From Candidatus Hydrogenedens sp. (GTDB lineage Bacteria; Hydrogenedentota; Hydrogenedentia; Hydrogenedentales; Hydrogenedentaceae), in assembly GCA_049968235.1 (NCBI GenBank), contig JBMFRC010000008.1, forward strand, positions 64,001 to 128,000: a stretch of 64,000 bases of DNA. Reading direction: 5' to 3'. Below the pieces are notes generated by a model. That model saw nothing but the letters and a program-made list of their open reading frames with translations. It made no database searches and had not been told where the DNA came from. Shown here piece after piece: positions 41,369 to 43,391 of the stretch. A program made the position numbers and the translations under genes. Position 1 is the first letter of the stretch. Every line of letters begins with the position of its first letter.

Positions 41369-42196
41369 ATGATGATAGGTGAATTAGAACTAAATAAAAT
41401 CTATCAAGGGGATTGTGTAGAGCTACTAAGGAAACTACCTCCAAGTTCTATTGATTTAATTTTTGCAGATCCTCCATATAATCTTCAACTAAATGGAGAA
41501 TTATACCGACCTAATCAAACAAAGGTAGATGCTGTAAATGATGATTGGGATAAATTTGAAACGATGGAAGATTATGATAAATTTACATACCAATGGTTAA
41601 AAGAATGTTACAGGGTTTTGAAAAACAACAGAAGTATCTGGGTGATAGGGACATATCACAATATTTTTAGAGTGGGAGCAATACTTCAAAATATTGGATT
41701 CTGGATACTCAACGATATAATCTGGGTAAAAACGAATCCAATGCCCAATTTTAAAGGAACCAGATTTAATAATGCCCACGAAACCTTAATTTGGTCAACA
41801 AAGACAAAATTATCAAAATACACTTTCCATTACCATTCCATGAAGGTAATGAATGATGATTTACAAATGAGAAGTGATTGGTTAATCCCTATATGTCAGG
41901 GAAATGAAAGGATTAAAATAAATGGGCAAAAAGCCCACTCTACACAAAAGCCAGCGGAATTGTTATATCGAATAATCATATCAACTTCAAATCCTGGTGA
42001 TATTGTTTTAGACCCCTTCTCAGGTAGTGGAACAACCGCAGCAGTTGCAAAACGTCTTGGTAGAAATTTTATCGCATTTGATAAAGAAGAATGTTATGTG
42101 AAAATTGGAATAGAGAGAGTTAAAAAGATTATCCCTTTAGAAAAAACATATTTAGAATACAAAGTGGAAAAAAGAAAACCAAAAGTTTCATTTTGA
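41369..42196 (+). CDS. Beta-class DNA amino-methyltransferase (DPPY motif, probably N6-adenine)
   Basis: Motif [13 protein letters not shown] precedes motif [16 protein letters not shown]. This IV-then-I order matches the CcrM/M.HinfI/PvuII-type beta class. Confidence 0.85.
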
Positions 42197-42536
42197 AATT
42201 TAATTGAAAAAGGGTATATCAAAATTGGGGAGTTCTTATATTCCAAAGATGGTAAATACATCGCATGTGTTTTAGCAGATGTATCTATTCTTTACGATAA
42301 CATAGCAGGTTCCATTCATAAGATAAGTGCTAAAATATTAGGAAAAGAAAATAATAACGGCTGGACTTATTGGCATGTAAAAAGAGAAAATAAGATAATT
42401 TGTATTGACCAATTAAGATATGAATATGAAAAGAAATATCTTACGAGTTCTTTTGATTATGGTATTTTTGACTTTGAAAAAGAATCTTCACTAACAGTCA
42501 AGGATGAAAGTTTCTTATATGAAAATAATGGAATAT
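42197..42536 (+). other. 113 sense codons in frame immediately after the methyltransferase TGA stop, with no start codon; likely a nonsense-interrupted or read-through C-terminal extension of the methyltransferase
   Basis: Hand translation from 42197 reads NLIEKGYIKIGEFLYSKDGKYIACVLADVSILYDNIAGSIHKISAKILGKENNNGWTYWHVKRENKIICIDQLRYEYEKKYLTSSFDYGIFDFEKESSLTVKDESFLYENNGI, ending at TAA 42537-42539. No in-frame ATG, GTG or TTG is present. Confidence 0.4.
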
Positions 42537-43391
42537 AACGAATTTAAAATGATATTAAATAAAAACATATTCGAACGCTCAAAGGCGGACTTGCTTGAAA
42601 AAATTGCGAATTCTCCTTCAAGATATATTGGACTTTTTAGACCTACCAAACCAAAAGGTAAAATTCTTCAAGATATATTACAATCATACGAAATCCGTTT
42701 TGGAAATGCATTTGAGGAAGTTTTCGAAAAATATTTAGGATACATGGGATTTGAAATACTAAAAAAGGTATATGTTGACAAAAACAAAGGTATTAAAAAT
42801 ATATTGTGCGTAGACCAATGTTTCAGAAAAGAAGAGAAAGTATATTTCCTTGAACAAAAGGTTAGAGATGACCATGATTCTTCCAAAAAAAGAGGGCAAA
42901 TAAAAAATTTTGAGGAAAAATTAAATATAATGCTATCAAAATTTTCAGAAAAAGAACTCGTTGGTATTTTTTATTTCTTAGACCCTGAAATTGTTAAAAA
43001 TAAACTCTATTATGAAAATGAATTAGAGACAATGAAAAGGGACTACAATGTAGAAACACATTTATTCTATGGTGAAAAATTATTTGAATTTTTAGGCTAT
43101 CCCAGTGTATGGAACGAAATTCTTAACTACCTTTCCCAATGGAAAAGAGAAATACCAGACATGCCAGAAATCAATTTTGACATAGACTATGAAAACACTT
43201 TCAATGAAATTAAAGATTTAAAACCACTCATTTTTAGGAGTCTACTTACTGACGATACAATATACGATGAAATTATTTGCACATTATTTCCTGATGGGAG
43301 AACTTTTAAATTATTAAGACAATATTTTATGCTTAAAAAGGGTTCTATTTACGAAAGATTAGTTAATTTGATTGACAAACGTATAAAATAA
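42504..43391 (+). CDS. Hypothetical protein; candidate restriction endonuclease partner of the methyltransferase (possible PD-(D/E)xK-like motif)
   Basis: A very AT-rich gene lying directly after the methyltransferase. It carries VDQCF...EQK spacing compatible with D...ExK. The start may instead be the ATG at 42519 (AAGGA 10 nt upstream). Confidence 0.4.
   Translation: MKVSYMKIMEYNEFKMILNKNIFERSKADLLEKIANSPSRYIGLFRPTKPKGKILQDILQSYEIRFGNAFEEVFEKYLGYMGFEILKKVYVDKNKGIKNILCVDQCFRKEEKVYFLEQKVRDDHDSSKKRGQIKNFEEKLNIMLSKFSEKELVGIFYFLDPEIVKNKLYYENELETMKRDYNVETHLFYGEKLFEFLGYPSVWNEILNYLSQWKREIPDMPEINFDIDYENTFNEIKDLKPLIFRSLLTDDTIYDEIICTLFPDGRTFKLLRQYFMLKKGSIYERLVNLIDKRIK

Follow-up and report, generated by a model that had tools for sequence, protein, structure and literature searches.

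A premature TGA at the start of the DNA-binding segment in a putative GANTC methylase gene from a HinfI/HpyAIV-type restriction-modification cassette of Candidatus Hydrogenedens

The window analyzed here, a stretch of 64,000 nucleotides from a Candidatus Hydrogenedens contig, carries a DNA methyltransferase gene (M) and, immediately downstream, an endonuclease gene (R) (Table 1). The M open reading frame starts at ATG 41369 and ends at a TGA after 275 codons, and the same frame then continues through 113 sense codons to TAA 42537-42539. A preliminary description of this DNA had given these coordinates and the translation, and both are reproduced. It had put the probability of so long an open run at 1e-3 or below. 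The run is rarer than that, at about 1e-5: only 4 of 200,000 mononucleotide shuffles leave the extension free of stops, and the analytic probability is ~8e-6 at 40% A and 33% T. A scan for in-frame start codons confirms that the 113 codons contain no ATG, GTG or TTG; CTG is absent as well, and only ATT, ATA and ATC occur.

Table 1. Features of the methyltransferase-endonuclease locus, in window positions.
Feature	Position	Strand	Basis or context
Inserted M-R cassette	41177..43477	+	Lies between a 256-aa gene (40406-41176, minus strand) and thuA (43478-44221)
M gene codons 1-275: beta-class N6-adenine methyltransferase catalytic core and linker	41369..42193	+	Pfam, NCBIfam and 6pbd matches
Premature TGA in place of Gly276, at the boundary of linker and C-terminal segment	42194..42196	+	Homolog and strain comparison
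Probable untranslated M remnant (RAMA segment, tail, TAA)	42197..42539	+	PF18755 match, CcrM alignment
AAGGA Shine-Dalgarno-like sequence, 14 nt upstream of the R start and inside the old M frame	42500..42504	+	Sequence and junction comparison
R gene: 290-aa HpyAIV-family type II restriction endonuclease (GANTC family)	42519..43391	+	NF045832 match

The M-R pair is an inserted cassette, because thuA directly adjoins the 256-aa gene, with neither M nor R between them, in three relatives that are more distant (L002-L004). The cassette occupies the same site in six other sequences (L001, L007, L008, L009, L010 and L014). Comparison with related strains, which the preliminary description had recommended, divides these into two sets: M is intact, at 389-395 aa, in L001, L007, L008 and L009, and it carries the TGA in L010 and L014. 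The end of M and the start of R share 11-20 nt in L001, L007 and L008. In L009, a frameshift and a stop disrupt R, and M is intact.

The M product belongs to the beta class of N6/N4 methyltransferases. Its residues 28-247 match N6_N4_Mtase (PF01555) with 230 bits against a cutoff of 26.7, and FADPPYN at residues 32-38 (DPPY 34-37) precedes DPFSGSGTT at 215-223 (FSGSG 217-221), so that DPPY lies N-terminal to FxGxG as is expected for this class. The NCBIfam CcrM model NF050803 aligns to the product over profile positions 2-272 of 350. The score of 458 bits, which covers only the truncated 275-aa product, is below the CcrM equivalog cutoff of 830. M also differs from a CcrM equivalog in that it is not solitary, as an HpyAIV-family endonuclease gene overlaps it downstream. 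An exact look-up of the 275-aa product finds no identical protein on record.

The missing part of the CcrM profile lies beyond the stop. By itself, the extension matches the RAMA family (PF18755) with 44.9 bits against a gathering score of 35.2 (E 1.2e-11). When the two halves of M are joined by an X at the stop, they align without a break to the Caulobacter CcrM chain in PDB 6pbd over residues 11-352 (E 2e-130), and the TGA falls opposite the Gly of CcrM 'PRVPFG'. Codons 277-356 are therefore predicted to encode a RAMA/CcrM-type C-terminal DNA-binding segment. They are followed by a poorly conserved tail (codons 357-389), and the TAA after it is the original stop of the M gene. CcrM is built from a core (residues 1-254), a linker (254-274) and a C-terminal segment (275-358) in which S315, H317, N330, W332 and R350 are essential (PMC7672430). 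The earlier suggestion that CcrM-like beta-class enzymes carry an additional C-terminal DNA-binding segment of this kind is thus correct.

Homologs of M are abundant and support the same division. A protein search over 5.8 billion proteins returns thousands of them, and conservation was counted on the best 120. All of these 120 are single proteins of 362-416 aa that span the extension, and 118 have Gly at position 276. The five residues that are essential in CcrM are all encoded in the extension, each being conserved in 120/120 homologs (CcrM numbering), and the extension agrees with the homologs at each of 27 highly conserved columns. The preliminary description had proposed a search with the 113-aa translation as a check; the translation gives a RAMA match, and the homologs of M carry the segment fused to the core. 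In the window, the complete ~80-residue RAMA segment with its five residues is present in the DNA, but downstream of the stop and outside the predicted product. Core and segment do not form one uninterrupted polypeptide, since TGA stands at codon 276. The only other lesion in this copy of M is G88R (AGA 41630-41632), a change private to the lineage at a Gly that is invariant in 120/120 homologs.

The gene downstream of M had been described as a putative endonuclease, and this identification is correct. NCBIfam model NF045832 (HpyAIV family) matches the R product with 241.1 bits against a cutoff of 160, over profile positions 1-265 of 269, whereas the HinfI model NF045831 reaches 26 bits against a cutoff of 175. 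R is thus assigned to the HpyAIV family rather than to the HinfI family proper. A Pfam scan of R with the current library gives no match, though precomputed tables list PF09520. To our knowledge, the HpyAIV family is structurally uncharacterised. The R start is most probably ATG 42519, which is common to L001 and to the recorded L010 product. R had been reported to overlap the old M frame by 34 nt; the overlap itself stands, but with this start its length is 21 nt. The AAGGA sequence ahead of the start is conserved in L001.

The R protein is 88% identical to its L001 ortholog. It keeps D99...E112-Q-K114, and D117 and H119 are also retained. Three lineage-private changes, N52D (42672-42674), L53I and H57Y (42687-42689), lie in the most conserved N-terminal block beside the invariant E58. 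N52 is found in 119/119 homologs and H57 in 115/119. The HpyAIV system is specific for GANTC methylation (PMC3936762), and GANTC is also the site methylated by CcrM and M.HinfI (PMC7672430). M and R are therefore a matched pair. From the homology to CcrM and the HpyAIV-family partner, we infer that M, when intact, would methylate GANTC to give m6A.

The genes beside the cassette put the organism within Hydrogenedentota, close to Candidatus Hydrogenedens terephthalaticus (L006). Exact-sequence look-up of the intact neighbouring proteins leads to sister contigs in two further NCBI assemblies, both from the same Candidatus Hydrogenedens species. L010 (GCA_049971155.1) is 99.65% identical to the window over 11.5 kb (window 38281-49832), and L014 (GCA_049969095.1) is 99.89% identical over 8.4 kb (window 34406-42779). 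Each differs from the window at 9-12 other positions, and both carry the same TGA. L010 is identical to the window in M codons 1-275. Past the stop it has D294Y (G to T at 42248), at a residue that is Asp in 116/120 homologs, and a deletion of 28 nt (42479-42506) that is out of frame in M and removes AAGGA. L014 has W60* (G to A at 41547, TGG to TAG), which replaces an invariant Trp of the catalytic core. Neither assembly has a record for an M product, though the flanking genes are all called. All three strains have an uninterrupted R open reading frame. The window and L010 encode the same R protein, and where the two GCA_049969095.1 contigs L014 and L011 cover R, they match the DNA of the window without a difference.

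Some other genes in the window also appear interrupted. A 1-nt deletion at 45216/7 splits a conserved 446-aa gene that is intact in L010 and five other relatives. Another, at 62675/6, splits an Nramp-like transporter gene; it is shared with L016, the gene is intact at 585 aa in L015, and full-length homologs have ~590-615 aa. Both deletions change CTGT to CGT on the + strand. Two apparent interruptions are not real. A frameshift in a GDPD gene (~31310) relative to L006 (Candidatus Hydrogenedens terephthalaticus, ~85% nucleotide identity to the window) was a false alarm caused by an indel upstream of the real ATG, and a 'split' radical-SAM gene in L015 reflects a 10-N scaffold gap.

Sequencing or assembly error could in principle create the TGA, in which case the true codon would be a sense codon (GGA) and M one intact open reading frame of 389 codons. 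The two 1-nt frameshifts that the 446-aa and Nramp genes show against sister assemblies lend this some credence, and TTTGGAAA read as TTTTGAAA is a change that homopolymer miscalling could produce. However, the Nramp frameshift is itself reproduced in a second assembly, and the identical TGA occurs in two assemblies that each differ from the window elsewhere. Both look like short-read scaffolds, with short contigs and one 10-N gap. They may come from one project with common methods, yet many positions distinguish the two from one another and from the window, and they bear additional and mutually different lesions in M. An error at this codon, which the preliminary description had offered as an alternative, is thus rejected as extremely unlikely. 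The consensus sequences instead indicate that the TGA is a real, fixed nonsense mutation and that M is no longer under selection, because three non-identical sequences have the stop in common and two of them have then gained different secondary knock-outs.

The age of the stop can be estimated from L001, a syntenic relative with ~81% nucleotide identity that is the closest of the four with an intact M. Its M has 389 aa, and the codon at the stop site is GGT. Relative to L001, dN/dS is 0.103 in codons 1-275, 0.115 in the extension and 0.084 in the RAMA part alone. Polarised amino-acid changes in the RAMA part number five on the window branch and five on the L001 branch, with no acceleration toward the window. 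Such symmetry fits a recent stop, although it is no positive test for relaxed constraint. Because dN/dS is low, no highly conserved column deviates and the changes are symmetric, the extension was translated and constrained during almost the whole divergence from L001. On this scale the stop is recent, though older than the separation of the three strains (~0.1-0.35% divergence). The first reading of the preliminary description, that a decaying restriction-modification system has recently acquired a nonsense mutation, is strongly supported by the RAMA homology, the Gly in homologs, the dN/dS values and the TGA in the sister strains.

Published truncations predict what the mutation does to the protein. 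When the C-terminal segment is removed, CcrM loses all DNA binding and activity and M.HinfI loses methylation of double-stranded DNA (PMC7672430), and CcrM deltaC65 is unable to protect GANTC from HinfI (bioRxiv 10.1101/293738). The stop at codon 276 reproduces the published CcrM truncation almost exactly. M is very probably null, because truncations at this same boundary abolish double-stranded DNA methylation in both enzymes; a 275-aa product would neither methylate double-stranded DNA nor protect the chromosome.

Could the 275-aa core nevertheless be a working methylase within a fully active system? Other beta-class methyltransferases function without the segment, among them the GANTC enzyme M.HhaII, and truncated M.HinfI retains activity on single-stranded DNA (PMC7672430). 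The 275 codons are, moreover, unchanged between the window and L010. Against this stand the effects of the same truncation on CcrM and M.HinfI (PMC7672430; bioRxiv 10.1101/293738), the absence of any protein shorter than 362 aa among the 120 closest homologs, the L014 stop at codon 60 and the replacement of the invariant Gly88. An active core is thus very unlikely.

Expression of the extension by low-level read-through, with a near-cognate tRNA-Trp decoding UGA, might supply enough full-length methylase to match an intact endonuclease. In E. coli, UGA with a following A is a comparatively leaky stop. The window's extension is pristine and keeps all of the residues critical in CcrM, the only lesions in this copy of M are the TGA and G88R, and the endonuclease reading frame is whole. 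However, the stop is conserved in no relative: the position is Gly in 118/120 homologs and GGT in L001, and read-through would replace this Gly with Trp. Folding of the 81 nt that surround and follow the stop is no stronger than in shuffled sequences (z = -0.25), with no stimulatory or SECIS-like structure, and an Rfam scan around the stop gives no relevant match. The sister strains carry W60* upstream, and D294Y and a frameshifting deletion downstream, which would not be tolerated if a read-through product were needed. Read-through had also been suggested in the preliminary description; it finds no positive support in stop conservation, structure, Rfam elements or the sister lesions, and we regard it as highly improbable.

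Programmed recoding would require TGA to be read as Gly (code 25), Trp (code 4) or selenocysteine, either by the host's own code or by that of an altered-code donor. The TGA is located exactly at a conserved Gly, as code 25 predicts, and the cassette is a horizontally acquired insertion. However, the standard code yields long, uninterrupted genes throughout the window, in which TGA serves as a rare but ordinary stop, as the preliminary description had noted. For example, gene 45689-46660 terminates in TGA at precisely the position where the L001 ortholog has TAA. The cassette has a single TGA in 679 codons, and the closest relatives use GGN at the same site. A tRNA scan of the window finds only tRNA-Ala, with no suppressor or selenocysteine tRNA, and the fold after the stop is not SECIS-like. 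Neither a conserved stop, nor a stimulatory element or additional in-frame TGAs, as expected for programmed read-through, selenocysteine insertion or a reassigned TGA, are found at this locus. Recoding is effectively refuted by the stop usage, the ortholog-verified TGA and the GGN codons of relatives, and its probability is close to nil.

A dead methylase beside a whole endonuclease gene requires some accommodation. There are 138 GANTC sites in the window alone, so a cell with an active R and a dead M should not survive. With M broken and the R open reading frame whole, R would have to be inactive, unexpressed or otherwise neutralised. The R start codon lies within the 3' part of the old M frame, and ribosomes that translate M now terminate 325 nt before reaching it; translational coupling from M to R may have been lost, and nonsense polarity on R is possible. 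A sigma-70 scan for an independent R promoter is uninformative, with 17 matches compared to 14 +/- 3.7 in shuffles; one 10/12 match at 42370-42399 lies inside the extension, in a scan that overall stays at shuffle level. GANTC avoidance, considered as a sign of restriction pressure, is equally uninformative, as the observed/expected ratio of 0.69 falls among the 0.64-0.75 of control palindromes.

The window and L010 differ in R at five positions, all of them synonymous, and R could still be under selection. These differences may instead represent one recombination event, because they are clustered within 26 nt. One could also imagine that the endonuclease is active and that the strain survives on a trickle of UGA read-through, or on methylation of single-stranded DNA by the core at the replication fork, with the stop serving as a natural means to attenuate the M:R ratio and not as a null mutation. 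There is only a very slim chance that this arrangement operates.

By far the most probable explanation is that the locus is a type II restriction-modification cassette in which a real Gly276-to-stop mutation has made M a pseudogene, leaving an undecayed and unexpressed remnant of its 3' end in a system that is decaying. In one Candidatus Hydrogenedens lineage, a two-gene cassette of the HinfI/HpyAIV (GANTC) kind lies inserted between the 256-aa gene and thuA. A point mutation in M, most simply GGA to TGA, would then have ended translation exactly where the C-terminal DNA-binding segment begins, and the 113 open codons would be what remains of that segment rather than an expressed extension. 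The founding stop is common to the three strains, two of which went on to gain further lesions that inactivate M. The intact R open reading frame may be tolerated if R was already crippled or silent, through N52D/H57Y, through the loss of upstream M translation and, in L010, through the deletion of AAGGA. A further GANTC methylase encoded elsewhere in the genome may instead provide the protection.

This explanation has practical consequences. Both pieces of the open frame should be annotated as one GANTC methylase pseudogene, not as a short methylase followed by an unexplained frame, and counts of active defence systems should leave the locus out. The locus would offer a clean, dated snapshot of restriction-modification decay in the uncultured phylum Hydrogenedentota, with one founding nonsense mutation and independent later hits. 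The whole R open reading frame poses a testable question, namely whether N52 and H57 are essential in the HpyAIV family.

Compared to methyltransferases of the M.HinfI/CcrM type, the window M has the same order of DPPY before FxGxG, a linker and a C-terminal RAMA segment of ~80 residues with the five essential residues encoded. It is unlike them in being interrupted at codon 276, so that the segment is untranslated, in carrying G88R and in having an extra, poorly conserved tail of ~33 residues. It is paired with an endonuclease, as is M.HinfI, whereas CcrM is solitary. The cassette resembles HpyAIV/HinfI restriction-modification systems in that R passes the HpyAIV model and M lies upstream in one operon, with stop and start overlapping as in syntenic relatives. 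It departs from them in that its methylase is probably dead and its endonuclease reading frame intact with substitutions at N52 and H57. Like other decaying systems and orphan methylases, the cassette is patchy, being absent from L002-L004, and L009 exemplifies the classical route in which R is broken first. In the window, by contrast, the visible lesions have M broken first, with the R open reading frame whole. The locus is nonetheless an ordinary, recently pseudogenised GANTC restriction-modification cassette of the HinfI/HpyAIV type that leaves current understanding unchallenged, and its only mildly unusual feature is that the first visible lesions are in M rather than in R.

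In three of the more distant relatives (L002, at 8211-9867, L003 and L004), the pair formed by the methyltransferase gene M and the HpyAIV-family endonuclease gene R is absent, and thuA directly adjoins the gene for a 256-aa protein. Because these two neighbors abut there, the M-R cassette is an insertion of approximately 2.3 kb.

Five synonymous differences separate the window from L010, a contig of the conspecific assembly GCA_049971155.1, and fall within 26 nt of R (window 42566-42591, codons 16-25), while the remainder of the locus is approximately 0.1% divergent. The cluster has the appearance of a short segment exchanged by recombination or gene conversion. 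Upstream of M, position 41350 of the window, 19 nt 5' of the start codon, is an A in L014, from the conspecific assembly GCA_049969095.1 (AAAAAATGG in the window becomes AAAAAAAGG). This site likely belongs to the leader of the dead gene or to its ribosome-binding region.

Two other genes of the window are split by the loss of a single nucleotide. A conserved hypothetical gene of 446 aa has lost one T (GCTGT to GCGT) to yield ORFs of 339 and 107 aa; it is an unsplit ORF of 446-448 aa in L010, L001-L004 and L009. This lesion is either a frameshift private to the window strain or an error in its assembly. A 1-nt deletion in an Nramp-like transporter gene (ACTGT to ACGT on the plus strand) leaves ORFs of 352 and 265 aa and is shared with L016, a GCA_049969095.1 contig. 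The gene is whole (585 aa) in L015, from GCA_049971155.1, and homologs span approximately 590-615 aa. This split gene probably represents a genuine pseudogene that is polymorphic. The deletion context, CTGT to CGT, is alike in the two genes.

Coordinates of additional features in the window and in the syntenic relative L001
Feature	Window	Strand	Lesion	L001
Conserved hypothetical gene (446 aa), split	44227-45566	+	45216/7	
Nramp-like transporter gene, split	61901-63657	-	62675/6	
GH9-like protein gene	38209-40377			3166-5325
Four tandem ORFs (271-276 aa), one strand	9695-13317	+		

The GH9-like proteins of L001 and the window are only approximately 56% identical, whereas the flanking genes are approximately 89-94% identical; relatives more distant than L001 are 70-83% identical to the window. 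Allele replacement via recombination may have occurred at this gene. The four tandem ORFs look like an array of paralogous genes.

The cassette of the syntenic relative L009 is also damaged. A frameshift disrupts its endonuclease gene (4136-5013), in which an in-frame stop also takes the place of a conserved Trp, and its methylase is intact. L009 exhibits the classical decay order, in which R is lost first, whereas the window exhibits the reverse.
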